A program made the translations under genes and the position numbers. Below the pieces are notes generated by a model. That model saw only the letters and a program-made list of their open reading frames with translations. It was not told where the DNA came from and did no database searches. Shown one piece after another: positions 7,569 to 58,593 of a stretch of 64,000 nt of DNA. The stretch is from a virus (lineage: Duplodnaviria; Caudoviricetes), in IMG/VR virus record IMGVR_UViG_3300014208_000023, positions 256,001 through 320,000 of that record; one strand, 5' to 3'. Position 1 is the first letter of the stretch. Each line of letters starts with the position of its first letter.

Positions 7569-7581
7569 TTTTCTTACTTAC

Positions 7582-7590
7582 TATATATCA
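7582..7590 (-). promoter_or_regulatory. TGATATATA promoter-like motif
   Basis: In the intergenic gap, 13 nt upstream of ATG 7568. Confidence 0.5.
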
Positions 7591-7595
7591 GGCAC

Positions 7596-8207: not shown

Positions 8208-8216
8208 AAACTAAAA

Positions 8217-9500: not shown

Positions 9501-9512
9501 CTGCTTCTTAAA

Positions 9513-10106: not shown

Positions 10107-10107
10107 T

Positions 10108-37538: not shown

Positions 37539-38734
37539 CTTGCTGTTTCTGTAAATGTCTTTAGTGCTTTTATTTGATTTTTAACGCGCCTATCTAATTC
37601 TTTTACTTGTTGAGTAACATTGACTTTTGGATTAATAAGTATTCTCTCATTAAGTTCCTTAATATAAGCAACTGGCCAGGCCTTTACTTTTGGATAAAGA
37701 GTTTTAAATCTTGTTCCAAGAATTTCCTTAATAACTTCCTGATCTAATCTGTTGATTGTAATTATCTCATCAAATCGTGCTGGTCGTAAAATTGCCGGAT
37801 GAAATGGCGCCAAGCTATTAACGATACCGATCGTTAGTTTTAGCTTGACATGCATTCTTTCCAAGAATCCCAATAAAGATGCGGATCCTTCTACGGTATC
37901 TAGGTCGTCAAGTATTAGAGCCTCTACTTTTAGAGCGTCAATAATATTCTCAATTGCTTGAAGGTCGGATGTTTGTGGATCATATTTGAACTTAAGGGTT
38001 CGAAGTCCCAGCTCATTTATTATCGTATTGGTGCAGGTTGTTTTTCCGGTTCCAGGATATCCCAAAAATATTATTGATCTATTGATATTTTTATCAATGG
38101 CGGCTTTAATATGTTTGAGATGTTTTGTTGCTGTGGGAGAATTAATTGATTTTAACTCTTCATTCTTTAATAGAAATCTAGTGCCTGCATCAGACCATTT
38201 ATGTGGTCCTCTATGTGCTTTTTCAGTAATAGAAAAAACTTGAGATTTTATTGACTTAAAAGCTTCTTGATATACGAAATCTAATAGCTGCTCTTTTTTA
38301 CCTTCATCCAAACAAAACCATAGTCCCTGTTCATCCCTGCCAATGGATTTTCCATTTGGAAGAGTATATATTTTAGATACTGATTGGTTATTGTATTTGA
38401 AGTTTAGAACTTTGGAGGGATAATTGTCTAATATTGGAACTAGAATATCATAAAGTGGTTGCTGTGTAGTTGCACACACTAACACGTCCCAGCCCTGTTT
38501 TATATTGAAATAGTCTGAGCTCCATGAACCCATAAAATCAGCCATAACATTGAGTGAGCCAAGTCCGCCCTCAACAAATGATAGCCAATTTTTATTGTTA
38601 GCAAATGCGGTTATTGAGCGAGCAACCTCTACTCCAGCCGCAATGTATAAGCTTTTGTCCAGCAATTCTCTAACAAGTTTCCGCTTGAATTTATGAAACT
38701 TTTCGCTATCAAAAAATGATGATTCACTTTTCAT
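37535..38734 (-). CDS. AAA+ ATPase, paralogue 2
   Basis: GYPGTGKT, LILDDLD, IVNS, PAILRPARFD; N-terminus similar to paralogue 1. Confidence 0.88.
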   Translation of the reverse strand: MKSESSFFDSEKFHKFKRKLVRELLDKSLYIAAGVEVARSITAFANNKNWLSFVEGGLGSLNVMADFMGSWSSDYFNIKQGWDVLVCATTQQPLYDILVPILDNYPSKVLNFKYNNQSVSKIYTLPNGKSIGRDEQGLWFCLDEGKKEQLLDFVYQEAFKSIKSQVFSITEKAHRGPHKWSDAGTRFLLKNEELKSINSPTATKHLKHIKAAIDKNINRSIIFLGYPGTGKTTCTNTIINELGLRTLKFKYDPQTSDLQAIENIIDALKVEALILDDLDTVEGSASLLGFLERMHVKLKLTIGIVNSLAPFHPAILRPARFDEIITINRLDQEVIKEILGTRFKTLYPKVKAWPVAYIKELNERILINPKVNVTQQVKELDRRVKNQIKALKTFTETAR

Positions 38735-39954: not shown

Positions 39955-40875
39955 TTAGTTTGCTCTGTTTTCAACAAACCATTTGTAAGTTTTAGCTATT
40001 CCGTCTTCTAGAGACGTTTCTGCCTTAAGCCCAATTGATTTTAGTTTAGAAACGTCCAACAGTTTTCTTGGTGTTCCGTCAGGCTTGCTGCTATTATATG
40101 TGACTGGCCCTTCGTAACCGACAACTTTCTTTATCAAAATCGCCAAATCGTTAATGGTCATATCCTCACCGACACCAACATTAATGAGATCCGGTATGTC
40201 GTCCATAAACAATGTTTCTTTTACTATATTGGCCAGATCTTCACAATACATAAATTCTCTTCTAGCTTTTCCAGTTCCCCATAATTCTACGGACTCTGAA
40301 CCATTTACTTTAGCTTCGTGAATTTTTCGCAGTAAAGCCGGCAACACATGAGAATCTTCCAGATCAAAACTATCACCGGGCCCATACAAATTGGTGGGCA
40401 TTAATGAGTAGCCGGGAAAATTATATTGCCTACAATATGCTCTTATCATTTGCACTCCGGCAATTTTGGCAACAGCATAAGCGTCATTAGTAGATTCTAA
40501 TGGTCCGGTTAGAAGATATTCTTCTTTAATTGGTTGAGGGGCAAATTTTGGATAGATACACGACGATCCAAGAAAACAAAACTTTTTGCAACCATACTTT
40601 CTAGCTGCCTCTATTGTATTTACGGTTATTTGTAAATTCTGCCTAATAAAATCTCCCTGATAAGTAAAGTTTGCCATAATACCGCCAACCTTTGCGGCGG
40701 CCATTACAACATAATCAGGATGGTATTCTTTGAAAAAATCCTCTACTTGAGCTTGATTGGTTAAATCAAGCTCTGATCTAGATTTAGTAATGATATTATC
40801 ATAGTTAGATTTTTTAAGACTGCGCACTACGGCAGATCCTACCATCCCATTATGGCCCGCTACGTAAATGCTCAT
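39955..40875 (-). CDS. fcl: GDP-L-fucose synthase
   Basis: GHNGMVG, AAAKVGGI, LGSSCIYP (catalytic Cys), YAVAK, SHVLPAL (catalytic His), KPDGTPRK. Confidence 0.95.
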   Translation of the reverse strand: MSIYVAGHNGMVGSAVVRSLKKSNYDNIITKSRSELDLTNQAQVEDFFKEYHPDYVVMAAAKVGGIMANFTYQGDFIRQNLQITVNTIEAARKYGCKKFCFLGSSCIYPKFAPQPIKEEYLLTGPLESTNDAYAVAKIAGVQMIRAYCRQYNFPGYSLMPTNLYGPGDSFDLEDSHVLPALLRKIHEAKVNGSESVELWGTGKARREFMYCEDLANIVKETLFMDDIPDLINVGVGEDMTINDLAILIKKVVGYEGPVTYNSSKPDGTPRKLLDVSKLKSIGLKAETSLEDGIAKTYKWFVENRAN

Positions 40876-41873
40876 TTTTTATTTAGTAAATAAAGTTCTT
40901 TTTCAGCCAATTCCATATCATATTGAATCATCTCATCTACCAGCATTTGGAATGAAAACTTTGGTTCCCAACCCAGCTCTTTTCGTATTTTGGAAGAATC
41001 TCCGCATAGAGCATCCACTTCGCTTGCTCTAAAGTATTTAGGATCTATTTCAACATAGTTTTTGTAATCAAGCCCCAGATGAGAAAATACCATCTCAACA
41101 AACTCTAGAACTGAATGCATCTCTCCGCTAGAGATAACGTAGTCTCCAGGATTTTCAGCAGTTATGATTTTAAACATTCCGGCAGCTACGTCCGATGCAT
41201 GAGACCAATCTCTTTTGGCGTCTAGATTTCCTAGATATAGTTTTTCTTGTAGCCCTAGTTTTATACGAGTTGCCGCTCTAGTTATTTTTCTGGTAACGAA
41301 GGTTTCTCCTCGTCTAGCGCCTTCGTGATTGAAACTGATGGCGTTACTGGCATGCATTCCATAAGCTTCTCTGTAGTTTATGGTGGCGTAGAATCCGGCC
41401 ACCTTTGCCACTCCATACGGAGACCTTGGGTGAAATGGCGTTGTTTCACTCTGTGGTGGATTTTCAGATCCAAACATTTCGCTGCTTGAGGCCGTAAGGA
41501 ATCTGGTTTTGGGACTACATTTCCTAACTGCCTCCAAAACTCTCATTACTCCGGTTCCTGTAACGTCCATGGTATAAACTGGAATATCAAAACTTACCTT
41601 AACGTGAGATTGCGCTCCCATGTTAAATAACAAATCTGGCTTAATATCTCCTATCCAGCTAGATAGTGATGCATAATCAGATAGGTCTCCATATGTTAAT
41701 TCTAATTGCGCATCCGAATGCGGATCTTGATAAAGATGGTCTATTCTCTCCGTATTTAGAGAGCTACTTCGACGCTTTAATCCATGAACCTTATAGCCTT
41801 CTTTTAGAAGAAGTTCGCATAGATATGATCCCGTCTGTCCAGTAACGCCAGTAATGCAAGCAGTTTTAGTCAT
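40872..41873 (-). CDS. gmd: GDP-mannose 4,6-dehydratase
   Basis: GVTGQTGSYL, AQSHVKVSF, ASSSEMFG, PRSPYGVAK, FNHEG, ETFVTRKIT, GNLDAKRDW. Confidence 0.96.
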   Translation of the reverse strand: MTKTACITGVTGQTGSYLCELLLKEGYKVHGLKRRSSSLNTERIDHLYQDPHSDAQLELTYGDLSDYASLSSWIGDIKPDLLFNMGAQSHVKVSFDIPVYTMDVTGTGVMRVLEAVRKCSPKTRFLTASSSEMFGSENPPQSETTPFHPRSPYGVAKVAGFYATINYREAYGMHASNAISFNHEGARRGETFVTRKITRAATRIKLGLQEKLYLGNLDAKRDWSHASDVAAGMFKIITAENPGDYVISSGEMHSVLEFVEMVFSHLGLDYKNYVEIDPKYFRASEVDALCGDSSKIRKELGWEPKFSFQMLVDEMIQYDMELAEKELYLLNKK

Positions 41874-41928: not shown

Positions 41929-42183
41929 TCATTTTTTACCATATATTTTGGTCGATCCCTGCCCATATAGTTTTTGTGCCTCTCCGGTTTTAACCATATG
42001 ATTTATCTGCTCGTCTATCTGCTGAATAAGATCATTTCTCTGCTGGTTTGCTATGTTAGTAAGGCGAGTGGCATCTGCAATCTCCTTATCTGTAGCGGAT
42101 TTATTCCTCTTAATATCTTCGGCCATCCATATTCTTATATTGGTTACTGATAAGCTGTCAATTAGATTTCCAATAGTAGTCAT
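41929..42183 (-). CDS. DUF4254-like small helical protein
   Basis: TIGNLIDSLSVTNIRIWMAED...NQQRNDLIQQID. Confidence 0.6.
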   Translation of the reverse strand: MTTIGNLIDSLSVTNIRIWMAEDIKRNKSATDKEIADATRLTNIANQQRNDLIQQIDEQINHMVKTGEAQKLYGQGSTKIYGKK

Positions 42184-42977
42184 TGTTTCCTAGTTTTGAA
42201 TTGTTCGATGTCTTCTTGCGTATCATTTAGAAGGTCCCAATACGTATATTCCCAATTTACGGATGGGGTAATCCATTTTGTATTAGTTGGCGGAGTGCTT
42301 GTATCTTCATTAACAAGATCGTGATATTCTAAACCGTTCATTTCGTATAAATCTTGCACGAAGTTTCTAACATTAAACGCCATTCCGGCCCCAACCATAC
42401 AATCTTCGATCTGCCCTATGCTTTTGCTTACGACAAATTTTGTATGAACCATATCTCGCTCGAAGTCCAAATTACCAACACTAATTTTTTCATTATTTAC
42501 GATCGATCTAAATATCTTTCCAAATAGGAAATACTTGCTTCTATACGTTGAATTGAAATAGAATGGGTGAATAAATATAACTTTTTTGTATAGATCGTTT
42601 AATTCACGAAGTTCTTTAATTTTATTTAAGAGAAGTAGTTTAGAAATCGCGTATTCATTTTTAAGATCGAAATTTGGTTCCGTATCTAAAGATATTACTC
42701 CCTCCCCAAACCCTCTCCACAATTCACAACTGGTGTAGCACACTATCTTTTTGGAGTTTTGCAGAAGGGCTTTGATTATCTTTAGTGTGTTCAGATAATT
42801 CGGAGTGATATAGTCAATGTTCTTTTCGTATATTCTCTGCTCGGCAAAAGTAATATATACAGAGTCCCATTGATTTTGTTTTAAATAATTGAAGTCAATA
42901 TTTCTGGAGGAAATTTTGACATAATCATCCGGAAAATACTGGGCTAACTGGGACGAACTTCCTATCACTAAATCCAC
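42180..42977 (-). CDS. Atypical NAD-dependent sugar epimerase/reductase (SDR)
   Basis: Degenerate IGSSSQLA nucleotide loop, YAISK, GNLDFERD. Confidence 0.65.
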   Translation of the reverse strand: MDLVIGSSSQLAQYFPDDYVKISSRNIDFNYLKQNQWDSVYITFAEQRIYEKNIDYITPNYLNTLKIIKALLQNSKKIVCYTSCELWRGFGEGVISLDTEPNFDLKNEYAISKLLLLNKIKELRELNDLYKKVIFIHPFYFNSTYRSKYFLFGKIFRSIVNNEKISVGNLDFERDMVHTKFVVSKSIGQIEDCMVGAGMAFNVRNFVQDLYEMNGLEYHDLVNEDTSTPPTNTKWITPSVNWEYTYWDLLNDTQEDIEQFKTRKQ

Positions 42978-44194
42978 TAGACACCTATAACTTCAAATTT
43001 CGGGCAGGGGACTATAAAACGACCACCTGCTAACAAATAATCCTGTTCTCTGCTGACAAACTCATTTATAAAATGCCAAGGCAATACTAGTAAATAATCT
43101 GGCTTTGCTCTACGCATCTCATCTTCAGAGTAAATCGGTATATTTGTTCCTACCGTTTTAAGCCCAAACTTATAGGGACTACGCTCGGCAATTCCATCGA
43201 TTAACGTGTGGTCAAGTCCAAAATATTGCAATAGGGTATTTCCTTTGGTGGAGGCGCCATAACCCCAAATAGTCTTGCCTTTGGCCTTCTCTTCTTTTAT
43301 AAAGAATACGGTTTTTTCTTTCAAAGATTCTATATCATTGTAAAACGATATCCAGGTTTCAGCTTGGTCTAATTTCAAAGTTTTTTCATATGCCAATAGA
43401 GAATCAACTCTCATATTGCAGATGTCTCTATATGGTTGAGAAGAAAATGTTTTTTCATCACCAGATTGTTTCATCGTATAAATTCTAAATGACCCGCCAT
43501 TAACATCATTAAGCTGGCAGTCCATAACTTTAAACCCATTTTTTTCTAGCAAAGCTTTTAAATTAAAAAGAGAATAGTAATAAATGTGTTCGTGACAGAT
43601 ATTATCAAAAGCCATTTGTTTAATCATTAATGGCGTATAGCTTAATTGAAGAACCCAAATGCCATTATCATCCAACACTTCTCCGATATCACGAATAAAT
43701 GAGTCTGGGTCTTCCAGGTCATAAAACATAGCTATAGAGGTTATTACTTTCGCTTTTAATCCGCCAAACTTACATTTTTTAAATGTATTAGCGCTAAAGT
43801 AATCTTGAATAATTAAATTGGAATGTTTTTGTGACTCGGCTTTATATGAATCATCTACCGGATCTATTCCAACTCTGATTAGGTCAGATGGTAACCACGA
43901 AAGAAGCGTTCCGTCATTACAAGCAATATCTATCCAAAGATCATTTTCTTTAAGTTTTTTTATTTTAAGAATGGAATCAACTATATCTTTTAATTCTTGT
44001 TTCATAGAAGAATTAATGCCGCTACGATACCAATATGTTCCATACATAGTATTTAACGGAGCTGATTTGGAAAGCTTAACGTTTCCATCATCAGTTAGCA
44101 ATAGTTTCATTTCAACCTTATCGCCCCGTGGTGGCTGGTTGTCTTTTATAAAGTCAGAAACATATAGGTCGCCTAAAGTAAAAAGCTCTTTCAT
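42977..44194 (-). CDS. NDP-hexose 3-C-methyltransferase family
   Basis: YWYRSG, DIACNDGTLL, FDNICHEHIYYY, GGS.R, WGYGASTKGNTLLQY, LPWHF, GGRFIVP.P. Confidence 0.88.
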   Translation of the reverse strand: MKELFTLGDLYVSDFIKDNQPPRGDKVEMKLLLTDDGNVKLSKSAPLNTMYGTYWYRSGINSSMKQELKDIVDSILKIKKLKENDLWIDIACNDGTLLSWLPSDLIRVGIDPVDDSYKAESQKHSNLIIQDYFSANTFKKCKFGGLKAKVITSIAMFYDLEDPDSFIRDIGEVLDDNGIWVLQLSYTPLMIKQMAFDNICHEHIYYYSLFNLKALLEKNGFKVMDCQLNDVNGGSFRIYTMKQSGDEKTFSSQPYRDICNMRVDSLLAYEKTLKLDQAETWISFYNDIESLKEKTVFFIKEEKAKGKTIWGYGASTKGNTLLQYFGLDHTLIDGIAERSPYKFGLKTVGTNIPIYSEDEMRRAKPDYLLVLPWHFINEFVSREQDYLLAGGRFIVPCPKFEVIGV

Positions 44195-46623: not shown

Positions 46624-47393
46624 TAAAAATACTTCAAAAACAAATCCATTCTTAATTTATGCCCCTCAGCAAATGAGGGGAAATAAGAATTCCATTGAGA
46701 ACCAGCCATATAATGGTAGAACCCATTAGCAACCCAGCCGGCACTTAATCCATATTTGCCACATATAAATAAATCATCTCTAAAATACTGTAAGAATGGG
46801 GTATCTTTGGCTGTGCTAATATAATTTAATATTTGGCTATTTTCCAGAAACTTAACTTTTTCTGGATTACTTTCAATAAAGTATCTGGTTTTCCCACCAC
46901 AATCTAGTCCTGGCTCTAATCCAAAATCTATATTTTTAGGATTTTGTAGAAGAGCCATATTAATGATCGTAAATGCTGGGTAGAAATAAATAATTCCTTT
47001 ACCATCCAATATTTTATATTCAGTTGTGCTTGCCGCAATATTGTTTCCTATAATATTTGAAACATTAATATCTTCTATTGGAAATACATCAGTATGAAGC
47101 AAAATAATAATTTCACAATTATTTTTAACGGCATAGTCTTGTACTGCCCAATTTAAAGTGGCAGCATATCCTTCTGAAGGATTTTGAATCTTATGAATAC
47201 TTTGCGGAACTCTCACGCAATTAATTTTATTATAGGAGGTCACCAGATTTATGGCCGCTTCCATCTCCGGATCCATTGCATCATTAAATAATACAAAATC
47301 AAAATCTTCTTTCATATACTTTTGAAATTGTCTATACATTATATCAATTGGAAACTTATCATTGACAGCAAAAGAGAAAACGGATATTTTCAT
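46620..47393 (-). CDS. Putative GT-A glycosyltransferase
   Basis: FVLFNDA, LLHTDVFP (xxD motif); cluster context. Confidence 0.5.
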   Translation of the reverse strand: MKISVFSFAVNDKFPIDIMYRQFQKYMKEDFDFVLFNDAMDPEMEAAINLVTSYNKINCVRVPQSIHKIQNPSEGYAATLNWAVQDYAVKNNCEIIILLHTDVFPIEDINVSNIIGNNIAASTTEYKILDGKGIIYFYPAFTIINMALLQNPKNIDFGLEPGLDCGGKTRYFIESNPEKVKFLENSQILNYISTAKDTPFLQYFRDDLFICGKYGLSAGWVANGFYHYMAGSQWNSYFPSFAEGHKLRMDLFLKYFY

Positions 47394-48289
47394 ACAAGCT
47401 CCATAGAATTAATAGTTTCTTGAAGACCGTCCTTCAAAGAAGTAAATGATATATTTGGCATTATTGTTTTTAAGTATTGATTGCTTACGGTTTTCTTTAA
47501 ATTTCCATCAGGCTTACTGGTATCAAATTTAATTTGATGTTTGAAATTGACTATTTCGCCAATCGTAGTTGATAGGTCTGCAATACTAATTTCTTCGTCA
47601 CCGCAACAAATTACTGGTTTTGTGTCGAAATAAACATATACCAATTCTTTTATTATTGAGGCTAAATCTTTAGAATAAATAAACTGCCTTAATGGCTTGC
47701 CGGCACCACTCATTATGACATCAGAATTATTTTTCTCTGCATCTTTAAACTTATTAATTAAGTTTGGTATTAACCTACCAGAAGACATATTGTCATTTGG
47801 GCCATAGATATTTGACGGTATTATTCCAAAGTATTTTCTGCCATATTGAGTGTTATAATTTTGGCACTGTAGCTCAAGCATTCTTTTTGAAAACGCGTAT
47901 CCGGCAAAAGCTCCGGTTAAATTGCCTTCAAAAATCATAGACTCGTCCATAGGAAATTTTGATGGAACTTCTGGAAACATATTGACTGAAAGGCAGCACA
48001 TTACATTTTGAATATTAGATATATTGGCTGCCTCTAATACGTTTTCATTTATTCTAACATTTGTTGAGAACGAAGAAACTCTATCTATATTGTAGAAGCC
48101 AGGAACATATGATGCCAAATGAACAATATAATCTGGCCGCATCTCATTTATAAAACCAATAGTCTGCGATCTTTCCGTTAAGTCACAATCTTTTCTATTG
48201 ATGAATATCCAATTATTTTCACCTGAGCACATAGACTTTAGCGCGCTTCCTACGCAACCATCACTTCCAGTAACTAAAATACGTTTCAT
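47390..48289 (-). CDS. Fcl/ColC-like NDP-4-ketosugar reductase lacking epimerase residues
   Basis: TGSDGCVG, YAFSK, PSNIYGP, RQFIYS.DLA, KPDG; SVN replaces S(S/T)C and RLIP replaces HV(I/L)P. Confidence 0.8.
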   Translation of the reverse strand: MKRILVTGSDGCVGSALKSMCSGENNWIFINRKDCDLTERSQTIGFINEMRPDYIVHLASYVPGFYNIDRVSSFSTNVRINENVLEAANISNIQNVMCCLSVNMFPEVPSKFPMDESMIFEGNLTGAFAGYAFSKRMLELQCQNYNTQYGRKYFGIIPSNIYGPNDNMSSGRLIPNLINKFKDAEKNNSDVIMSGAGKPLRQFIYSKDLASIIKELVYVYFDTKPVICCGDEEISIADLSTTIGEIVNFKHQIKFDTSKPDGNLKKTVSNQYLKTIMPNISFTSLKDGLQETINSMELV

Positions 48290-49488
48290 GGCTTGTAGCT
48301 CAACAATATATCAACCAGATCATCCACTAGATCGGCCGACATTAAATTGCTTGGAAGACCTATAAAACACCCTCTATAGTGGCATTTCTCGGCCCCTTTA
48401 AAATCAGCCGGATTTAATTCAGGATAAAGATCCTTGATGACTGGCTGCCTAACCATATTGCCGGTTATTATTGGCCTATTTTCGACGCCTTTGCTTGAAA
48501 GATAATCTAAATAATCTGATAGCTTAATGTTTTCATCCAAAAACATAGTTACTCCAAACCACGCAATATCGCCATTATCTATTTCTTTTGGAAATGAAAT
48601 AAAGCTACCTCTTGGATCTGCTTCTATTTTTGACTTTATATTGCTATAGTTTATTTTCCTATTTTCGTTTTTAGATTTTAATTTATATAGCTGATGCACG
48701 CCCATCGCCGCCTGTATCTCCATGGGCCTGACGTTATATCCTAGATTTACGAAAGTAAATCTTGGGTCTATGTCCGGAAACTGTTCCTGAATTTCATTCT
48801 TATTCTTTAGGCTCCTAGACCAACCATGGGCACGCAGACACTTTATGAGCTCATAATCCTCATCGTCATCACAAACTACCATTCCGCCTTCCATAGTAGT
48901 TATGTGATGTGAATAATAAAATGAATATGTGGCAAAGGTTCCAAAAGTCCCCAGGTATTTGCCATCATATTTGGATCCTAGGCTTTCACACGTATCCTCT
49001 ATTAAAATAAGATTGTGGCGCTTAACTATATCCATTAATTTTCTCATGTCGGTGGAGTTTCCTAGGACATGAACCAACATAATGGCTTTTGTTTTTTCAG
49101 TTATTTTCTTTTCTAGATCCTCTAAATCTATATTTAGAGTTTCAGGATCTACATCGACAAACACTGGAACTAGATTGCACTGAACAATTGGAAAAATACT
49201 TGTAGACCAACACAAGGCCGGAACAATAACTTCATCGCCCGGCACAAGCTTATTGGCTCTTTTGTAGTTAGTTAAAGCGGCTACGGCTAACAAATTGGCG
49301 GACGAACCAGAATTAACCATAACTGCATGTTTAGCACCAACATATTCTGCGAACATATTTTCGAATTGGCTTACCTGCTCACCCATAGTGAAGTTTCCGG
49401 TAAGCAATACTTTAATCATATTTAAAATATCATCAGTATCGTGAGCGTTCTGTCCCAATGGGAACTTCATAATTAACGGTGATTTCAT
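48286..49488 (-). CDS. colD: GDP-4-keto-6-deoxy-D-mannose 3-dehydratase (PLP-dependent)
   Basis: FTMGE, NSGSSANLL, SFYYSHHITTMEGG (His replaces the Schiff-base Lys), RAHGWSR, GYNVRPME; no RfbH Fe-S Cys motif. Confidence 0.85.
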   Translation of the reverse strand: MKSPLIMKFPLGQNAHDTDDILNMIKVLLTGNFTMGEQVSQFENMFAEYVGAKHAVMVNSGSSANLLAVAALTNYKRANKLVPGDEVIVPALCWSTSIFPIVQCNLVPVFVDVDPETLNIDLEDLEKKITEKTKAIMLVHVLGNSTDMRKLMDIVKRHNLILIEDTCESLGSKYDGKYLGTFGTFATYSFYYSHHITTMEGGMVVCDDDEDYELIKCLRAHGWSRSLKNKNEIQEQFPDIDPRFTFVNLGYNVRPMEIQAAMGVHQLYKLKSKNENRKINYSNIKSKIEADPRGSFISFPKEIDNGDIAWFGVTMFLDENIKLSDYLDYLSSKGVENRPIITGNMVRQPVIKDLYPELNPADFKGAEKCHYRGCFIGLPSNLMSADLVDDLVDILLSYKP

Positions 49489-50567: not shown

Positions 50568-51413
50568 TTATACTGCTTCAGAAGAGGTGTGAAAAAGCCG
50601 AATACCTATTTGCGTTTTGTTTTCTAGAAAATACATCTGCACATCAAACCCATTACTAAATGGCTTAATAGTATTATACAAAGTATATGGCGAAAACCAA
50701 TACTTATGATCTGGATGAACCATTTCTAACGAAAACTCATCTGAACAAAAAATTTCCGCAACTGCCATACACGGAACAGTGAATAAATATTCTTTAGCTT
50801 TTACTGAAAAAATATCTTTTAAAAATAAATCTACATTTGGAACGTGCTCCATTACTTCAGGAACTATGACAATATCATATTCTTTATCAACATCCTTATA
50901 TGACGTAAAGTATGTTCCTGGGCAGGCCTGTTTTAGCTTATTTGTGGTTTCAACATCAATATCCAGACCGTCTATTCGCGTATTTATTCTTTTTTTAAAT
51001 TCAGAATAAGCTATTTCTGCAAGAGAAGATGCAAGCTCTGCCTTGGCGAGCGCTTCATTTCCAACGGCCTGTTCTGGCGTTACCTTCGCTCTTTCTTTAG
51101 TTCTTTCTATTTTTGCCTTATCTACTTTCTCTTTAAGAACTATTTCTTCTTCGGTCTTCATGTCCTTAAGTTTAGATAAGAATATATGCAAATTAGATTC
51201 CACATTAAAAACCATAGTGTCAGCGCATCCTACATGTAGGACTGTTTTGCCCTGACATAAATTTCCAATAAATTCAAATCTAGAATGTCTGATATTTTTC
51301 AGATGCATTTTTTGTATATAAAAATTATCAGTAGCCTCGTATGTTTTACGGGCAATTTTAACTGGTGCTTCTGGTGCTTCGATAACTTCTAGCTGCATAT
51401 TTTCTCCGGTCAT
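50568..51413 (-). CDS. Class I SAM methyltransferase with ~60-aa helical insertion
   Basis: VLHVGCAD, GLDID, YDIVIVPEVMEHV, FTVP. Confidence 0.8.
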   Translation of the reverse strand: MTGENMQLEVIEAPEAPVKIARKTYEATDNFYIQKMHLKNIRHSRFEFIGNLCQGKTVLHVGCADTMVFNVESNLHIFLSKLKDMKTEEEIVLKEKVDKAKIERTKERAKVTPEQAVGNEALAKAELASSLAEIAYSEFKKRINTRIDGLDIDVETTNKLKQACPGTYFTSYKDVDKEYDIVIVPEVMEHVPNVDLFLKDIFSVKAKEYLFTVPCMAVAEIFCSDEFSLEMVHPDHKYWFSPYTLYNTIKPFSNGFDVQMYFLENKTQIGIRLFHTSSEAV

Positions 51414-52129
51414 ATTTTAATCCATTCTGGTGGTAAAAGGTCTTTTGTGTTATGTTGTAGTGCCGGCCCAAACCAGGTACTTGGTGCCAGAACTTTTTTA
51501 TTTTCGTTTTTATTTAGCCAAGCTCCCCACCAGCTAAAGCTACTGTTGCATATAATATTGCTTTCGCATGTTTTAGCCATCAAAGCTAAATCTATTGCCG
51601 GCCCATTTCCCTCAGAATATTCGTATTGATTTCCTACGAAATTTCTTTTGGCCCAGTCCATATCATCAGATAGAATCAAAAATTTCTTGCACCCACTCAT
51701 TTCCATTGCTTTTGAATAATAATCCATACTCATAAGTGGATGACAATTTTGAAAATTAAGGTAATCACCTCTTCTTATATGAAGAGAACACAATCCCTCT
51801 TCTCTTTCAAACTTATAAATTGGAGTTAATGCTTTAGCTATTTCTTCTTTATTATTTTCAAAGTATTTCCAGGATTGGAAATATCCTATTAAATCCACCG
51901 AATTAGACGCTGGGATTTCATCATAATGAAATGCTTTTTCCTGATAAGTTTTAGATACGGCTATATTTGATGAAAAACAATTATGCAAATTAAAGTTAGG
52001 TTCATATTGCCAAGGTGGAAACTGATAATCCGTATTGTTTTTAATAGCAGTAGATATAGTGGTAGCTATCTGGAATAAACAATTCCCTAACCTACCCATC
52101 TTTCCTAGCTGTGAAAACGTAACTGTCAT
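51410..52129 (-). CDS. GT11 alpha-1,2-fucosyl/colitosyltransferase
   Basis: GRLGNCLFQ, GYFQSWKYF, HIRRGDY, ILSDD, NSSFSWWGAWL. Confidence 0.93.
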   Translation of the reverse strand: MTVTFSQLGKMGRLGNCLFQIATTISTAIKNNTDYQFPPWQYEPNFNLHNCFSSNIAVSKTYQEKAFHYDEIPASNSVDLIGYFQSWKYFENNKEEIAKALTPIYKFEREEGLCSLHIRRGDYLNFQNCHPLMSMDYYSKAMEMSGCKKFLILSDDMDWAKRNFVGNQYEYSEGNGPAIDLALMAKTCESNIICNSSFSWWGAWLNKNENKKVLAPSTWFGPALQHNTKDLLPPEWIKI

Positions 52130-54459
52130 TGCCTTATTTCGTGGTGGTTTTTATCAAGTAGAAGTATTTTTGGCGCAAATGTTTTTGGAAGCCACTTCTT
52201 CTTATAAGACTCAATATTTGATTGAGGGTAGTGATAGCTTGGAGTCAAAATTACTGTTGGCTCGTTGTCTAGAAAATACCTATTTATTGCGGTCTCGTCG
52301 TGCCAAACTGGAATCACGTTGTTTGCCACATCTCTATCTATAACATCCTTACACCATTTAGCAAGCTCCATATACTTGTCTCTTCTACCTCCACTAAATC
52401 CTCCGCCAAAATAGTTCTTATATTTTTTTGGATACGAATCAGAAATGAATAAACGAGAGGCTGGATTTGTTTCAAATGGACCCTTACCATTAGTAAATCC
52501 ACAATGCTGAACGCCAACCAAATCGCCTATAATCTCTGGCCCAATATTATCTACGAATAAACAATCAACATCTACATAATATAGATAATCTTCATTATTC
52601 AGAATATGCTCATTGTTTGCGAAATGGGCAAATCGATCCATACTGGCAAATGGAAACGGTTTATGCTGAATTGGAATATGAATTATTCTACGATCCGATT
52701 TTGGAATATGAACTGTTTTTCGCTCAGCATCTAATGACGTTATGTCGCTAAAAACATAATATGTTACATCAAAATTTTCATTTAGAAAATGTTTGTCGGC
52801 AGAATCTATTATTCCTTGCAAAAATCTATCATATTTGCCCGTGGCTATAAGCATTAGTCCAACCGAAGTTTTTTTACTTGGCGGAGATACTGGAGAATAC
52901 CGAGGCATATTTCTAATGTGCCTATCAAGATCTTGTTGCATCTTAACATTTACTTTATGATCATTAATTGGGTTTTCCATATTATAGACATAAAGAATAT
53001 CTGAAATGTATTTTTGATGGTGTTTTGCCATTTCCATCATAGGAAACATTATGGCGAAATCCCATGTCATCTTGAAAAATTCACCGTTAATCGATAAATC
53101 TTCTTTTCTTATTATTTTGAATAGCCAAGCATAGAACGTTCTTAAGTGGGAGGCTGCCCAAGGCGTTTTTCTAAACGCTAGATTTTCTATAACTTCTGGT
53201 CGATAGGCGCCGGCAATACCTGAGCCGCCATTTGGGTGGTTTGTATATTGTCCGTAAGACATCCAAATATCACTTTCATTGTAGTGACGCTTAAGTCTAT
53301 TCAAAACCTCTCCATCGGGAAGCCAGTCATCACCATCAAGCGTTAGGACAATTTCATCATCAGCACAACTATGAATCATATTATATAGATTTGCCAACGC
53401 TCCTTGTCTGGAGTTATTCTTTATTACGGTGCATTTATGTTGGTGCGGTGAGTTTTTCACCGCAGCATTTACCAAATTGAATGTTTGATCTGGAGAGCAA
53501 TCATCTACAAATATGACTCTGAACTTATCATAATTTTGATTTAGTGCCGACAATATATTCTTTACGCACCATCTTTCATTATTGTAGCTTGGAATAACAA
53601 TAACGAACCTTTTTTCTTTAGAATCCAATGACCACGCTCGCGGAACATTAACTAGGGCCGTTTTCATTGGCAAACTAATTGATGTTGGATCATTAAGTGT
53701 TAGTGGCTTGCCAATAGTTAAGCCTGGCCTTCTTGAATTAATAAAGCGCTCACTATACTGAACATCTCCGCTTCTACGTGCGGCATCTGACTCCAGCTTA
53801 AGAATATGGTGCCTATCTCTGCGTATAAACCAAAGCCTTCTATTACCAAATTTTCTTCCGGTATCATTAACCGACCAGTCATATCTAAATTGGCCGTGAT
53901 TTAATTTAGTCTCATCAACCCTTTTGAATTTTGCATTCAATGATGAAAGCTTGTTTTGCAGATTTTTTTCTGAAACAATGCTTCCTTCTCCACTGAAGGA
54001 ATGATCGTCTATATCTTTAGATTCATAAATAGGAACTAATATATTTGGATTAGAAGAATCTAATATTTCAGTTTCTAGAACTATTCTTTCAGAAACTGAA
54101 AGCAACGATTCTATATGTTTTTCATATGTCTTAAGGTGACATAGAAGATCTATGCTAATGGCCATATCAAAAGAAAAAGGCTCGAATGGAAAATCTTTTT
54201 CCAAATCGAGCTGCATTGTTTTTATATATGGGAACTTTTTTCTAATAAGATTTAGGTTAGATTCTCTTGCATCTACGCAAGTCATCTCCGCCCCTAACCT
54301 TGCAAATATATTGGCAAATTCTCCGTTACCGGCACCCAAATCAAGGATCTTTTTTCCTTTGAAAAAGGTCTGTCCAAAATAATCAATTATAGTTTTGCTT
54401 AACTTGAAATTTCTCTCTTTTTGCTCGGCTGGAGTCATAACTCTAAATATAACTGCCAT
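52126..54459 (-). CDS. Three-domain fusion: SAM methyltransferase + GT2 + GT6 (ABO-like)
   Basis: ILDLGAGNG; IPSYNN/VDDCS/LDGDDW; IATGKY, VDVD, FGGGFSGG, WHDETAIN. Confidence 0.88.
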   Translation of the reverse strand: MAVIFRVMTPAEQKERNFKLSKTIIDYFGQTFFKGKKILDLGAGNGEFANIFARLGAEMTCVDARESNLNLIRKKFPYIKTMQLDLEKDFPFEPFSFDMAISIDLLCHLKTYEKHIESLLSVSERIVLETEILDSSNPNILVPIYESKDIDDHSFSGEGSIVSEKNLQNKLSSLNAKFKRVDETKLNHGQFRYDWSVNDTGRKFGNRRLWFIRRDRHHILKLESDAARRSGDVQYSERFINSRRPGLTIGKPLTLNDPTSISLPMKTALVNVPRAWSLDSKEKRFVIVIPSYNNERWCVKNILSALNQNYDKFRVIFVDDCSPDQTFNLVNAAVKNSPHQHKCTVIKNNSRQGALANLYNMIHSCADDEIVLTLDGDDWLPDGEVLNRLKRHYNESDIWMSYGQYTNHPNGGSGIAGAYRPEVIENLAFRKTPWAASHLRTFYAWLFKIIRKEDLSINGEFFKMTWDFAIMFPMMEMAKHHQKYISDILYVYNMENPINDHKVNVKMQQDLDRHIRNMPRYSPVSPPSKKTSVGLMLIATGKYDRFLQGIIDSADKHFLNENFDVTYYVFSDITSLDAERKTVHIPKSDRRIIHIPIQHKPFPFASMDRFAHFANNEHILNNEDYLYYVDVDCLFVDNIGPEIIGDLVGVQHCGFTNGKGPFETNPASRLFISDSYPKKYKNYFGGGFSGGRRDKYMELAKWCKDVIDRDVANNVIPVWHDETAINRYFLDNEPTVILTPSYHYPQSNIESYKKKWLPKTFAPKILLLDKNHHEIRQ

Positions 54460-54504: not shown

Positions 54505-57249
54505 ATGGCCACAAATTATCCTACCCATATTGACGACACCTCTAGCTTGCCAGTTGTGGCTGATAACGTACATAGAGTAGATTCTGATGTTATTAATCGA
54601 TTACGGGCCGCAATTATAGCCGTTGAATCTGAATTGGGCACAAAACCAAGTGGAATATATGGAACCGTAACTAATCGGCTTGATGGGTTTGAAACTCTAA
54701 TTAATTCGATCATTAGCGCCGGCGTTGCTAGCAGCTTTACTGCTGCCGGCGATTTAAGCGGGAACTCTACTAGCCAAGTAGTTATTGGCTTACGTGGAGT
54801 TTCAGTAAGCTCTACGGCACCAACAAATGGTCAAATATTATCATATGATGGATATTCTTGGAAAGCTAAGGGGCCACAAACTCCAGTTGTTACACAGGAA
54901 GCTTGGTTCATAGATCCAGTTAGCGGCAACGATTCCAATAGCGGACTTACTTCTGGAACGGCTCTAAAAACTCTTGCGGAAATGTATTCTCGCTGGGGTC
55001 CGGCTCCAAAGCTATTAGCATCTGTTTCTGGATTTATTACCGTAACACTAATGAGTGCTCCGGGCATAAATGACCCCATTATTTTGAGCGGAGATCTTGG
55101 TCCAGACACGAATTTAATGTATAAAGGAGCGGCATCTACCGTTAGATCTGGAACTTTTAGTGCGGTAACTGCACTTAATTCAGCAACAAATCAAGCGTGG
55201 GAAGTTGATGATAGCGCTAGAGATTGGACTACGGATCTAAATAAGCGCATTAAAAATACGACTGCCGGAGCAAATCTTGGACAAGTAGCCTGGGTAGCTA
55301 AAAGCATAGGTGGAACATCTGCCAGAATATCGCAGCCGGCATTTATTGATGCGGCCACAATACATGGATATACCGGGCCAACAGTTGGAGTATTCTCCAC
55401 TAGCGACACTTATATAGTAGAAGATATTACGGAGGCTTATTTAGCAAGCGTTATTCGCGTAGGCCGTTTCGAAGGCAATGAATTAGTTCACCCTGGTAGG
55501 GTATTTTTTCAGGATATTTATTTTAAAAATTCAGTTGGCGGAACACTAATTCAGCAGTGTGCTTCTTTAGTATTTTTGGGTTGTCGTTTTGATAACTCAT
55601 ATCTTGAGCATGCATTAGCTCCTGCATTTATGAATTGTAATTTGGGTAATGGTATTGGCATCTTTGAATCTGAAATGTCAACAATTACAGGAATGATTGC
55701 GGGAGATATGAATATAGCTTCTGGCAGTAAAGTATATATGCAAAATTGGCTGGTTCAGGGCGCGACCATTTATTTATTTGGTGGAGATGTAGTTCTTACT
55801 GGAACTTTAGGAATTTTTGATTCTGCCGCAGACGCGATCAACGTTGGATATGCTAGTTACGGCAAAGGGTCTCTTGATGCTGGGCTAGCTTTGTTTGGAA
55901 GTGGCAATGCTGGGCATGGAGTTAATATTGGCCCACTAGGATCATTAGCTTATGCTACAACCCCTACAATTACTGGAACTGCCGGCAACGTTGTTATTGA
56001 TGGAACATCGCTAACATGGAGAACGGCACCGCAAATTTTTAGTGGAACAAACAATTCTACGAGCACCTTTTCAGTAGGTCCAAACCCCGCTCTTACTGGC
56101 GATTGTTTGCGCCTTGGACCATCCATAGCTAATGCTGGCGTATATAACAATGTAATAACCACTCGCATCAATGGTGCAGATGCTACCGTCGTCAGAATTC
56201 ATGACGGCGCCTCTTACATCATGCTGGGAGATACCGGCTATTACATGACGCTACAAGGCTATAATAACGTGTTCGCTTCCAATGCGTTAGGCATTCACGA
56301 GTTCATAATTGGAGCTGCTGACGCAATGCAACTTAATGCTAACGGCGTTCAGATTGGGCCAGGCGCTTTTGATCTTGGCGGTGGAACTGGTGTAATCGGA
56401 ATTGATGACGCGGCCGTTGTTCCAACAACCAATCCAACAGGCGGAGTAGTTCTTTATTCTGAAACGGGGGCACTGAAATTCAGAAACCCAGCAGGCACAA
56501 TAACAACACTTGGTTCAGGCGGATCTCCAGGCGGTTCTGATACGTATATTCAATTTAATGATACTTCTACTTTTGGTGGCGATGCTGGACTTACCTATAA
56601 TAAAACCACAAACGTTCTTTCATTAACCGACGCTATTGCTATTGGAGCAATACCTGCATCTGCGGGCTCACTGCGATTAGCAACCAGTTCTATTATAAAC
56701 TATCGCAATGCATCCAATACTGGAGACGTTCAAGCACTCAACTGTGATGGTTCGTTTGTGTATGTCGGAGATGTTAGTCGCAATGATTCTGGATTATTGC
56801 TATATTCTGGTGGTAGTGTTGCCATTAATGCAACTGGTGACGTTGTGCTTGGGTATGGCACGCCAAGATTAACTGCCACTACTACCAATATTCTTTCTAC
56901 ATTTCCACTTATTGGTGATAGCGCCAACACTTCGCCATACGGTGTTCATGGAGGAGTAATTGTTACTCCAGCAATAGACGCTGCCGTAACACTAGTGGCA
57001 GCAGAATATAACTTCGATTGGATTCAAGTTGATACCGGCGCTTGGGCGACTGGCCCATTTGGGGTTATTTTTCCAACTCCAGCCACAAAAGCCGCGGGTT
57101 TTTATAAAACTGTTTTTAACAATTCGACGCAAACAATAACGGTGCAAAATGGCGGAGTAGCAACCAGAACTCTTACTACTGGACTTGGCCAGAGATTTTG
57201 GTTTGATGATGGCGGCGCGTTTTTTGCTGGGGCAACATTTACTCCATAA
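54505..57249 (+). CDS. Tail-fibre/tailspike-like virion protein
   Basis: G/T/S/A-rich; GDLSG...APTNGQILSYDG..W, FIDPVSGNDSNSG...KTL and PGGSDTYIQFND fibre motifs; probable beta-helix core. Confidence 0.75.
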   Translation: MATNYPTHIDDTSSLPVVADNVHRVDSDVINRLRAAIIAVESELGTKPSGIYGTVTNRLDGFETLINSIISAGVASSFTAAGDLSGNSTSQVVIGLRGVSVSSTAPTNGQILSYDGYSWKAKGPQTPVVTQEAWFIDPVSGNDSNSGLTSGTALKTLAEMYSRWGPAPKLLASVSGFITVTLMSAPGINDPIILSGDLGPDTNLMYKGAASTVRSGTFSAVTALNSATNQAWEVDDSARDWTTDLNKRIKNTTAGANLGQVAWVAKSIGGTSARISQPAFIDAATIHGYTGPTVGVFSTSDTYIVEDITEAYLASVIRVGRFEGNELVHPGRVFFQDIYFKNSVGGTLIQQCASLVFLGCRFDNSYLEHALAPAFMNCNLGNGIGIFESEMSTITGMIAGDMNIASGSKVYMQNWLVQGATIYLFGGDVVLTGTLGIFDSAADAINVGYASYGKGSLDAGLALFGSGNAGHGVNIGPLGSLAYATTPTITGTAGNVVIDGTSLTWRTAPQIFSGTNNSTSTFSVGPNPALTGDCLRLGPSIANAGVYNNVITTRINGADATVVRIHDGASYIMLGDTGYYMTLQGYNNVFASNALGIHEFIIGAADAMQLNANGVQIGPGAFDLGGGTGVIGIDDAAVVPTTNPTGGVVLYSETGALKFRNPAGTITTLGSGGSPGGSDTYIQFNDTSTFGGDAGLTYNKTTNVLSLTDAIAIGAIPASAGSLRLATSSIINYRNASNTGDVQALNCDGSFVYVGDVSRNDSGLLLYSGGSVAINATGDVVLGYGTPRLTATTTNILSTFPLIGDSANTSPYGVHGGVIVTPAIDAAVTLVAAEYNFDWIQVDTGAWATGPFGVIFPTPATKAAGFYKTVFNNSTQTITVQNGGVATRTLTTGLGQRFWFDDGGAFFAGATFTP

Positions 57250-57263
57250 TAAATATGGGTTAT

Positions 57264-57842
57264 TTACAATTGCTCGCCCTCTGAAATCTCCGCCACTAGA
57301 TCAAGTATTTTTGACTCCGATACTGGATAGTAGTTCCACCGATCAACTCCAACATTAATCATGCGGTTTCTAAATAGCCATTTTTCATGAATGTGACCGT
57401 GAAGTAGCCACTGCCCATCATTCTTTGGGCGGTAATCAGGATACCTTTGATCCTTATCACCTTCTTTTAGAAAAGGTAGATGACAAAGAAGAAACTTACG
57501 ATCGCCAATCGATAGCTCCATACGCTCTTGAACGGAAGCAAATCCATATTCAATATATTTTAGAATTGATTTTTTATGCTTTGAATGTTTCGAAAAACAA
57601 GAATCGTGGTTGCCTGAAACTAGATGTTTAATTCCGTTAAGTCTAGATAGGATTGGTTGAACAAACTTATCATTTAGTGAGAAATCTCCCAGATGATAAA
57701 CCACATCATCTATACCAACAACTTCATTGTATCTTTTTACAATTTCATAATTCATTTCTTCAACGTCTTTAAATGGACGATTAGAGTAACCAATAATCGC
57801 CTTATGGAAAAAATGCTGATCAGACGTGAAAAAAATTGTCAT
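57264..57842 (-). CDS. Calcineurin-like metallophosphoesterase (phage type)
   Basis: SDQHF, LGDF, GNHD, LCHLP, HGHIH, NVGVD intact. Confidence 0.9.
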   Translation of the reverse strand: MTIFFTSDQHFFHKAIIGYSNRPFKDVEEMNYEIVKRYNEVVGIDDVVYHLGDFSLNDKFVQPILSRLNGIKHLVSGNHDSCFSKHSKHKKSILKYIEYGFASVQERMELSIGDRKFLLCHLPFLKEGDKDQRYPDYRPKNDGQWLLHGHIHEKWLFRNRMINVGVDRWNYYPVSESKILDLVAEISEGEQL

Positions 57843-58593
57843 CGTTTATAAATCTCTTCTACTCTATGGTGGAAGATCCTAGTAATCATCCATATGAATT
57901 TAGAATAGGACATTTTACCTTTAGCTCTATTACAAAGCAAACAACAAGGAATAACATTTTCTAAATCGTGCTTACCATCACTTGTTTTTCGATCTAAACC
58001 ATTATATATGAAATTACCATGAAGACTAGCAAACTCTGAGCATCCATATGTTTTGTTAAACACATTAGACATATTTGATGGGTTAGTTCCACAATAATGA
58101 CAAGGAAGTTGAGATAATTTTAAAAAATTATCGAATGATAAATTCCCATCACTATATGAGTCTCTATAGACCATTCTTGCCGTAGATAATCTCGGCTCTT
58201 CTGGAGCCGAATGTATTTTATTGTGCCCGCAAGATTTTATGCTTCTTCCGTCTATTCTAGATAAATCTCTATATCTAACTATTTTTCTAGGCCACAATCA
58301 CAAATACAAGGAAAAAACATTACATTTTTGTTGAAATAACCGGAACCAGTTATAGTAAGTTGGCCGAATTTTTCATTCAAAATGTTTGGTATATTTCTAC
58401 GGGAACATCCGCAAGATTTGCTTCGCCCGGAAGATAGGGATAGTCCTTTTATTATTTTTAGCTTACCGCAATCACATTTACAAGACCAATATGTATCTTT
58501 ACAATTTAGATTATCTGGCTTGCTTACTTTTTCAAGCACAATCCAAAATCCAAATTTCATTCCAACTCCTACAGAGGGTTTTTTATATTTCAT
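57839..58593 (-). pseudogene. HNH homing endonuclease split by a -1 frameshift (track ORFs 58279-58620 and 57839-58297)
   Basis: CICDCG-LEK* joins IVRYRDL...KSCG if one A is added to the A5 run at 58282-58286; C-terminal CHYC...GLDR...CCLLCNRAK. Confidence 0.8.

Follow-up and report, generated by a model that had tools for sequence, protein, structure and literature searches.

Two adjoining genes on the minus strand of a 64,000-nucleotide stretch of viral DNA (the window, whose numbering is used for features unless another source is named) together encode three glycosyltransferases. The window spans positions 256001-320000 of IMGVR_UViG_3300014208_000023, a virus record of 428,320 bp that has direct terminal repeats, and is present in full in two groundwater metagenome runs, possibly the source sample. 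Habitat is taken from these two full matches only; runs from wastewater, sludge, soil and freshwater that shared few words with the window were set aside, and none of the listed runs that contain it is recorded as RNA. The phage to which it belongs also encodes a phage-type DNA polymerase and SbcCD-like nucleases. The upstream gene (52126..54459, minus strand), defined by its open reading frame (ORF), Pfam matches and an AlphaFold model, encodes a 777-residue fusion of a methyltransferase, a family 2 glycosyltransferase (GT2) and a family 6 glycosyltransferase (GT6). The downstream gene (51410..52129, minus strand) encodes a 239-residue protein of the GT11 alpha-1,2-fucosyltransferase family. 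At the junction (...GGCAATGACAG...), the TGA stop codon of the fusion gene and the ATG start codon of the GT11 gene share the bases ATGA at 52126-52129 (minus strand), and the overlap coupling described in an earlier reading of the letters alone (the sequence-only reading) is indeed present. The genome holds only one GT11 and one GT6. Domains were assigned with Pfam, residue positions were taken from HMMER alignments to solved GT6 enzymes, and protein models were made with AlphaFold. Residue conservation refers to alignment A1, with 28 homologues, for the fusion protein and to 33 homologues for GT11.

The AlphaFold model of the 777-residue protein (mean predicted local distance difference test score, pLDDT, of 84) folds into three blocks, with a disordered linker that spans residues 227-273. 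The first block (residues 7-226; 53782..54441, minus strand) is a class I S-adenosylmethionine-dependent methyltransferase domain, matched by Pfam Methyltransf_11/25/23 at residues 20-122. The second (residues 280-520; 52900..53622, minus strand) is a GT2 domain of the inverting GT-A type (PF00535, 67 bits, residues 285-433), in which DD319-320 and DGDD375-378 are invariant in the 28 homologues. The third (residues 529-777; 52129..52875, minus strand) is the GT6 catalytic domain. It matches PF03414 at residues 529-750 with 118.6 bits against a cut-off of 25, covering profile positions 73-292 of 313, in agreement with the earlier statement that the long protein ends in a GT6 domain. Its score for the NCBIfam subfamily NF041524 (154.7 bits) falls under the cut-off of 250, and its HMMER matches include BoGT6a (E = 4e-36) and the human ABO transferase (E = 2e-28).

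The catalytic residues of the family are in place in the GT6 domain. A DVD metal-binding motif at residues 630-632 (52564..52572, minus strand) aligns to D211-V-D213 of the ABO enzymes and to N95-A-N97 of BoGT6a, and is invariant in alignment A1. The WHDE sequence at residues 719-722 (52294..52305, minus strand) contains the catalytic glutamate, equivalent to E303 of GTA and E192 of BoGT6a. D721 and E722 are invariant, as is the C-terminal lysine K770 (K359 of alpha3GT, K231 of BoGT6a), and Y683 and W719 are conserved. The donor-specificity loop, YFGGGFSGG at residues 683-691 (52387..52413, minus strand), aligns as Y683-F-G-G-G-F-S-G-G691 to human Y264-Y-[L/M/G]266-G267-[G/A]268-F-F-G-G272, and to Y153-Y-A155-G-G-L158-S-G-G of BoGT6a. 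G685 and G687 are thereby the equivalents of ABO positions 266 and 268, where the small residues of A-synthase-like GT6 enzymes are present. The sequence-only reading had placed glycine alone at these two sites, and the HMMER alignments to both ABO and BoGT6a confirm that the residues it quoted do occupy the specificity positions. The AGGL loop makes BoGT6a specific for UDP-GalNAc, and a change from HAAL to AGGL turns alpha3GT into a GalNAc-transferase (PMC3516806); the GGGF loop of the phage domain is even smaller than AGGL.

The positions that discriminate between acceptors are also of the GTA and BoGT6a type. GT6 enzymes with fucosylated acceptors differ from alpha3GalT in having His rather than Gln at position A1, Gly or Ser rather than Trp at A2, and Ala or Ile rather than Trp at A7 (PMC3516806). 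The phage domain has H652 at A1, G654 at A2 and L767 at A7, which fall on H122, G124 and I228 of BoGT6a, and both the HCG sequence and L767 are nearly invariant across the fused clade. The features of a metal-independent enzyme of the BoGT6a type are absent: DVD takes the place of NAN95-97, and the protein ends seven residues past K770 with no C-terminal membrane-binding domain.

BoGT6a (PDB 4AYJ/4AYL/4CJ8) is the best sequence match of the phage GT6 among solved structures, and shares with it H122, G124, Y153, W189, E192, K231, a small A7 residue and a small donor loop. The bacterial protein is, however, a single-domain, metal-independent enzyme of a gut symbiont with NAN and T134, where the phage domain has DVD and Pro. 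Equivalents of DVD, H233, G235, Y264, G267, W300 and E303 are shared with the human enzymes GTA, GTB and AAGlyB, and the best-scoring ABO chain is a Gly266 mutant (cis-AB AAGlyB). At positions 266/268 the phage domain has Gly/Gly, GTA has Leu/Gly, GTB has Met/Ala and AAGlyB has Gly/Ala. Identity to the human ABO enzymes is approximately 30%, and the phage domain differs from them in lacking a stem or transmembrane region and in having Pro at the T245 position.

The 264 GT6 relatives compared here came from two sources, the 120 best word-index matches and the 150 top-ranked representatives from an exhaustive HMMER search, in which 2,087 clusters scored E <= 0.001. A DxD sequence occupies the metal site in 263/264 of these nearest domains. 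Positions 266-268 read GGG in 154 domains, AGG in 60 and CGG in 22, and the Gal-type sequences xGA and xGS are rare. The GGG loop occurs in 130/139 fused forms, whereas AGG is the commonest loop in free-standing GT6s. Given these counts, neither DVD nor GGG is very unusual. The assignment of DVD to the metal-dependent type stands, since it aligns to DVD211-213, but the motif does not set this protein apart from its nearest relatives as the sequence-only reading had implied. A DXD clade that contains the cyanophage P-SSM2 protein and Parachlamydia PaGT6 ('clade 1') has already been published (PMC3516806). In a FastTree phylogeny of 142 GT6 domains, a split supported at 0.987 places 41/46 fusion-borne domains and five shorter forms on one side and the GT6 of P-SSM2 on the other. 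The shared position of those 41 domains suggests a single origin of the fusion. The phylogeny that had been proposed as a check on the sequence-only reading thus divides most of the fusion domains from P-SSM2.

The match of the GT11 protein to PF01531 (72.3 bits against a cut-off of 23.9) covers only profile positions 107-296, the C-terminal two thirds. The protein is nevertheless complete, as its motifs, the lengths of its homologues and a full-length fold alignment show. HIRRGDY at residues 117-123 (51761..51781, minus strand) is the HxRRxD GDP-sugar motif shared by GT11 and its fucosyltransferase relatives, and its H117, R119, D122 and Y123 are invariant in the 33 homologues. An N-terminal GRLGN is also present, as are SDD154-156 and NSSFSWW195-201; these last two and HIRRGDY are invariant or nearly so. 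Among the matches listed, the nearest homologues are 219-247 residues long, mostly 236-245. In the AlphaFold model (pLDDT 93.6), residues 2-239 align to residues 3-288 of WbgN, 1-302 of WbnK and 63-333 of FUT2, with template modelling (TM) scores of 0.75-0.83. The intact GT11 of the sequence-only reading is therefore upheld. The reviewed structural neighbours of the model are WbgN (TM 0.83, 26% identity) and WbnK (24%), followed by FUT2, FUT1 and Sec1; WbgN, WbnK and FUT2 all make alpha-1,2 linkages to beta-Gal. A sequence search with GT11 against solved structures gave no match at E <= 1; fold matches among solved structures are FUT8, POFUT1 and NodZ, of the same superfamily.

Homologues of the fusion protein were identified in more than 120 protein clusters at 41-72% identity, some of them on contigs of 420-478 kb, which marks methyltransferase-GT2-GT6 as a standard gene of a huge-phage clade. 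A DNA search with the 3-kb stretch against 50,697 phage records gave no match. The related loci were gathered with an alignment of homologues as the query; a single-protein query gave none. A GT11 orthologue lies downstream in every one of the 21 related loci for which the sequence extends that far. It is the next gene in 17/21, at a spacing of -4 (ATGA-type) in 11 and of -1 to +231 in six. A gene-sized gap of 0.7-1.9 kb precedes GT11 in 3/21, and in the last locus (1/21) GT2 and GT11 are themselves fused. Recurrence in 21 loci argues that the adjacency is not due to chance.

Four architectures can be distinguished. GT11 accompanies the methyltransferase-GT2-GT6 protein in the first; GT2-GT6 preceded by a 370-residue N-terminal region without family assignment in the second; and a GT2 alone, of 250-260 residues, in the third. 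The fourth is a single 873-residue ORF (L013:8888-11509, IMGVR_UViG_3300033074_001876) that begins with an N-terminal region without family assignment and has GT2 at residues 381-542 and GT11 at residues 686-870. This fusion is a Rosetta-stone link between GT2 and GT11. The methyltransferase domain is missing in many relatives, which have a different N-terminal region or none in its place, and the GT2 domain is the sole part of the fusion gene common to all related loci. GT2 and GT11 occur without GT6 in seven loci (six GT2-only genes and the 873-residue ORF). GT6 was not found in the five GT2-only or GT2-GT11 records that were searched, which are fragments of 10-78% estimated completeness, the largest of 336 kb. 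The constant pair is therefore GT2 and GT11, kept across the related loci, and GT6 and the methyltransferase are additions. The sequence-only reading had put its emphasis on GT11 and GT6 as a pair, and this needs qualifying, as the constant partner of GT11 is the GT2 domain and GT6 is optional. The conserved gene coupling and the modular occurrence of GT6 are, like the domain identities and motif positions, direct observations. This pattern of presence is as expected if the sugar added by GT2 is fucosylated by GT11, with GT6 capping last. In a 642-kb uncultured phage (LR756502.1, positions 8001-10162), matches to GT2 (33%) and GT6 (40%) lie approximately 750 bp apart with no GT11 match within 8 kb of them, an arrangement by which the GT2/GT6 association reaches beyond the clade with GT11 coupling.

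Genes for nucleotide-sugar supply lie in the same co-directional block of sugar genes on the minus strand, at 38.8-54.5 kb of the window. GDP-mannose 4,6-dehydratase (Gmd; 40872..41873, minus strand; TIGR01472, 451.5 bits, above the cut-off of 415) and GDP-L-fucose synthase (Fcl; 39955..40875, minus strand; NF047922, 435 bits, below the cut-off of 500) are encoded approximately 10.5 kb downstream of the fusion and GT11 genes. Fcl carries the epimerase motifs SSCIYP (Cys) and SHVLP (His) as well as YxxxK. With a Gmd match of 451 bits and an Fcl that has its catalytic motifs, GDP-fucose synthesis within the cluster, as claimed from the sequence alone, is well founded.

Other deoxy sugars may be made in the same block. 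A ColD-type, pyridoxal-phosphate-type enzyme of the DegT family (48286..49488, minus strand; 300 bits), a possible alternative source of a 3,6-dideoxy donor, has the sequence SHHITTMEGG, with His in place of the Schiff-base Lys. Its gene is coupled to that of a second Fcl-like reductase (Fcl2; 47390..48289, minus strand; NF047922, 167 bits), which keeps YxxxK and has LSVNMFP and SGRLIP in place of the SSCIYP and SHVLP of Fcl. The pair, conserved in two related loci (L005 and L010) at 72-77% identity, might produce a 3,6-dideoxyhexose without epimerisation. At 42180-44194 (minus strand), a sugar C-methyltransferase (Methyltransf_14, 156 bits) adjoins an atypical short-chain dehydrogenase/reductase (SDR) of 265 residues. 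Several relatives keep the C-methyltransferase at 62-77% identity, which suggests that the same glycan includes a C-methylated deoxyhexose. In five large relatives that keep GT11, an Fcl-family match is present in 5/5 and is clear (36-41% identity) in 4/5, versus a ColD homologue in 1/5. The one donor open to every member of the family is thus fucose or, more cautiously, a product of Fcl. Colitose or another GDP-sugar is still a live option in this particular phage, given the several GDP-sugar routes in the cluster and WbgN as the top structural neighbour of GT11. In the closest relative (L022:14913-17218), the place of ColD/Fcl2 downstream of GT11 is taken by a PRK/aldolase-II fusion, a nucleotidyltransferase and a TylF-type O-methyltransferase; relative to the window, the operon head (fusion and GT11) is constant and the sugar-supply part is swapped.

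The absence of membrane proteins bears on the acceptor. No protein of the cluster other than one ORF of 123 residues has segments resembling transmembrane (TM-like) helices. A crude hydropathy scan of all 563 genome ORFs of at least 100 residues found four with three TM-like segments and none with more; two long ORFs with three are a 574-residue subtilase (C1:383881-385605) and a protein without family assignment. Polytopic membrane proteins are thus nearly absent from the phage. The same scan of 563 ORFs gave no candidate for a priming polyprenyl-phosphate transferase, Wzx flippase, Wzy polymerase or ligase, for all of which host enzymes could substitute. As no flippase, polymerase or lipid-carrier priming enzyme is encoded, a soluble acceptor is favoured over a lipid-linked O-antigen. 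A divergent gene 45 bp upstream of the fusion gene (54505..57249, plus strand) encodes a fibre-like protein of 914 residues that is, from its context only, a candidate substrate. It is rich in Gly, Ser, Thr and Ala, and has no Pfam or PHROG match. Its N-terminal 69 residues are 80% identical to those of a 662-residue protein encoded at the same position in the closest relative (L022:7946-9934), whose fusion protein is 72% identical to that of the window. An internal piece of 82 residues is also shared with the 662-residue protein at 56% identity, the remainder is mosaic, and the last 200 residues resemble (31%) the C-terminus of the next L022 gene (775 residues, 5616-7943). Such mosaicism is typical of receptor-binding proteins. 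The fibre-like neighbour is absent in more distant relatives.

The sugar block is flanked at 35690-38734 (minus strand) by genes for a UDG-family protein and two AAA ATPases of approximately 390 residues, and on the other side, at 57264-58297 (minus strand), by a metallophosphoesterase gene and a short ORF that matches HNH weakly. Two further sugar loci occur elsewhere in the genome. In one, a 455-residue FtsZ/tubulin-like ORF (G000:C1:124351-125718; L027:2352-3719, minus strand), with a TIGR00065 score of 61.6 bits that is far under the cut-off, adjoins a dTDP-glucose 4,6-dehydratase-like gene and two GT2 genes. The other (G000:C1:189862-199876; L028:1862-11876) contains a dTDP-glucose 4,6-dehydratase-like gene (343 bits against a cut-off of 365), a weak partial match to UDP-GlcNAc 3-dehydrogenase (57.5 bits against a cut-off of 450), several ORFs without family assignment and a 911-residue ORF with a GT2 domain.

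Several elements of this system have precedents. The annotated cluster of P-SSM2 comprises two GT2s, a GT1, a GT11 (PSSM2_265), two hypothetical genes, a GT6 (PSSM2_268), an epimerase and a GT25. It resembles the phage locus described here in having a GT11 and a DVD-type GT6 in one co-directional glycosyltransferase cluster with GT2 genes, and in a GT6 that is a minimal catalytic domain without a C-terminal membrane-binding domain. The two GT6s are 32% identical, and the two GT11s are 32% identical over their full length. In P-SSM2, however, GT11 and GT6 are free-standing and two genes apart, whereas the fusion is translationally coupled to GT11 here; the donor loop is AGG and A2 is Tyr, in place of GGG and Gly; and P-SSM2 is a T4-like cyanophage rather than a 428-kb groundwater phage. 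Both genes have stood in the P-SSM2 annotation from the publication of that genome onwards, and the co-occurrence of GT11 and GT6 in a phage is not new. Nor is a DXD-type prokaryotic GT6 that makes an A antigen, as PaGT6 depends on Mn2+ or Mg2+, accepts H trisaccharide or 2'-fucosyllactose for the transfer of GalNAc and shows no activity on LacNAc (PMC3516806). The prokaryotic GT6s tested (BoGT6a, WbnI, BgtA and PaGT6) all use Fuc-alpha2-Gal acceptors.

The O-antigen enzymes of Escherichia coli offer two further comparisons. In E. coli O86, a beta-1,3-galactosyltransferase (WbnJ, which we take to be a GT2 family member), a GT11 (WbnK, second only to WbgN among the reviewed structural matches of the phage enzyme) and a GT6 (WbnI) bring the same three families together around one Gal. 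WbnI uses Fuc-alpha2-Gal-beta-R and transfers Gal, and the bacterial GT6 group to which it belongs is mostly NXN, not DXD. The O86 enzymes are separate proteins that act on a lipid-linked O-unit with Wzx and Wzy, whereas the phage lacks these and its glycosyltransferases are fused. Among reviewed enzymes, the alpha-1,2-colitosyltransferase WbgN of E. coli O55 is structurally closest to the phage GT11, whose cluster includes a ColD-type gene. The phage GT11 is, however, approximately 50 residues shorter than WbgN, and its orthologues persist in phages without ColD. Among the papers accessible to the literature search, none was found that proposes or tests an ABH-type glycan made by a phage, and nothing links the published 'moraphage' lineage (PMC12619734) to this genome. 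What is new here is the methyltransferase-GT2-GT6 fusion, its tight coupling to GT11 and the breadth of this arrangement in huge environmental phages, as well as a natural series with and without GT6 and the GT2-GT11 fusion.

The two genes may constitute a cytoplasmic module of three glycosyltransferases that builds a histo-blood-group-like trisaccharide cap, a pathway for which we infer every sugar, every linkage and the target. The GT2 domain would add a beta-linked hexose, most likely Gal. The coupled GT11 would then transfer a 6-deoxyhexose from a GDP-sugar to it in alpha-1,2 linkage; L-fucose, supplied by the phage Gmd and Fcl, is the likeliest. A GT6 dependent on Mn or Mg would complete the cap by adding alpha-1,3-GalNAc, and possibly Gal as well, to the same hexose, giving GalNAc-alpha1-3(Fuc-alpha1-2)Gal-beta-R. 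For the N-terminal methyltransferase, the probable role is O-methylation of one of the sugars in this product. The acceptor R would more likely be a soluble phage product, such as a virion protein, than a lipid-linked O-antigen; we prefer the virion as the target, with the adjacent fibre as a candidate. We put the probability of an A/B-like trisaccharide chemistry at approximately 0.5, and hold any particular target to be less probable than that.

Several observations count against this pathway or leave parts of it loose. Comparison of the GT2 domain with solved structures gave generic GT2 matches only and no clue to its sugar. The acceptor-Gal contact Thr245 of GTA (Thr134 of BoGT6a) is Pro661 in the phage domain, a position that in the fused clade is Pro in approximately two thirds of members and Thr in about a quarter. 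The other GDP-sugar routes of the cluster (ColD/Fcl2, and the C-methyltransferase with its SDR) may feed GT11. No UDP-Gal/UDP-GalNAc 4-epimerase was recognised in the genome, whose six epimerase-family matches are Gmd, Fcl, Fcl2, two dTDP-glucose 4,6-dehydratase-like proteins and one weak match; UDP-Gal or UDP-GalNAc must consequently come from the host. The argument for a virion target consists of the absent export genes and the gene neighbourhood only. Finally, a human enzyme with Gly266 and Ala268 uses UDP-Gal and UDP-GalNAc about equally (PMC4692239), and by this precedent the product could be B-type as well as A-type. From the AGGL and Gly266 precedents, an all-Gly loop clearly permits GalNAc but need not prefer it. 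Of the roomy, GalNAc-favouring pocket in the sequence-only reading, the small residues at 266 and 268 stand, and the domain may favour UDP-GalNAc, although the dual human enzyme tempers that expectation.

It may be that the topology is correct but the 6-deoxy sugar is not fucose. Colitose, the ColD/Fcl2 product or a C-methylated deoxyhexose could take its place, in which case GT6 would have to accept that sugar and the cap would be A-like in shape only. The rank of WbgN (TM 0.83, 26%) ahead of WbnK and FUT2, the ColD-type gene (His-for-Lys) with its coupled reductase 2-4 kb downstream, and the presence of a single GT11 beside at least three GDP-sugar branches all point in this direction. WbgN leads WbnK by little in the fold search, however, and unclassified proteins of the cluster (355, 299, 271 and 257 residues) could transfer the other sugars. 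GT11 also occurs with the same coupling in relatives without ColD, while Fcl-like genes are general. The colitose option of the sequence-only reading thus gains from WbgN and the ColD-type gene but loses from the count among relatives (ColD in 1/5, a clear Fcl in 4/5), and a different deoxy sugar seems to us unlikely. A stronger departure would have GT6 bypass the GT11 product, adding alpha-1,3-Gal or GalNAc directly to the GT2 sugar to give an alpha-Gal- or Forssman-like end, with GT11 fucosylating another position or chain. GT2 and GT6 are indeed parts of a single protein from which GT11 is separate, the pairing of GT11 with GT2 is also seen in loci that lack GT6, Pro stands in the place of Thr245, and acceptor sites vary in the wider clade, as the Tyr at A2 of the closest cultured-phage GT6, that of P-SSM2, indicates. 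Yet His, Gly and Leu at A1, A2 and A7 are as in fucosyl-acceptor enzymes, HCG and L767 hardly vary across the fused clade, the 2'-fucose is required by each of the four prokaryotic GT6s characterised so far, and among the related loci GT11 stands beside GT6 whenever GT6 is present; we consider the bypass improbable.

Other possibilities concern the target. The same chemistry could remodel a lipid-linked intermediate of host lipopolysaccharide (LPS) or capsule during infection, using the host flippase and ligase, either to exclude superinfecting phages or to prevent adsorption to cells that have already lysed. Cyanophage 'LPS gene' clusters are classically read as remodelling the host envelope, clusters of the P-SSM2 type hold GT2, GT1, GT11, GT6 and GT25 genes, and the bacterial GT2, GT11 and GT6 set of E. 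coli O86 acts on undecaprenyl-PP-linked O-units. The phage nevertheless offers no candidate priming transferase, Wzx, Wzy or ligase, and the cluster abuts the fibre gene both in this phage and in its closest relative. With its very large size, its own nucleotide-sugar supply and four methyltransferase domains, the cluster resembles self-contained virion glycosylation, which is known from giant viruses and mycobacteriophages, and an envelope target is a somewhat doubtful alternative. Viral glycosyltransferases reportedly put diverse glycans on DNA, and hypermodification of the phage DNA with an oligosaccharide, for example on hydroxymethyl-pyrimidine bases, could be imagined from a thymidylate-synthase-family gene in the genome (G000:C1:93715-94563, plus strand; 248 bits). 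That match looks like an ordinary ThyA, however, no evidence of a base hydroxymethylase was obtained, and to our knowledge no GT6, GT11 or GDP-deoxyhexose pathway takes part in DNA modification, which makes this explanation highly implausible.

The trisaccharide pathway is at heart a family-level argument with an annotated precedent, but one with tidy comparative evidence and a good experimental system; if the product is not A-like, the finding is one more phage glycan cluster. Non-vertebrate GT6s have been characterised only from a few host-associated bacteria and one chlamydia, and the phage members are sequence entries only. In huge environmental phages, GT6 is now seen as part of a conserved assembly line that exists with and without the GT6 step. 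The locus thereby provides a testable system for asking whether phages make ABH-type glycans, what purpose such glycans serve in groundwater, where there is no vertebrate immune system, and how a metal-dependent GT6 with an all-Gly loop chooses its donor. The compact fused enzymes could also serve in the chemo-enzymatic synthesis of A- and H-type oligosaccharides. More speculatively, a widespread clade of environmental phages of 400-480 kb might make particles that carry a true histo-blood-group A-type trisaccharide. Such phages would be polymorphic for it, with GT2 and GT11 giving an 'H-type' and GT2, GT11 and GT6 an 'A-type', a viral counterpart of the ABO polymorphism, and they would harbour, outside the vertebrates, a large pool of metal-dependent GT6s of the lineage presumed ancestral to the vertebrate enzymes.

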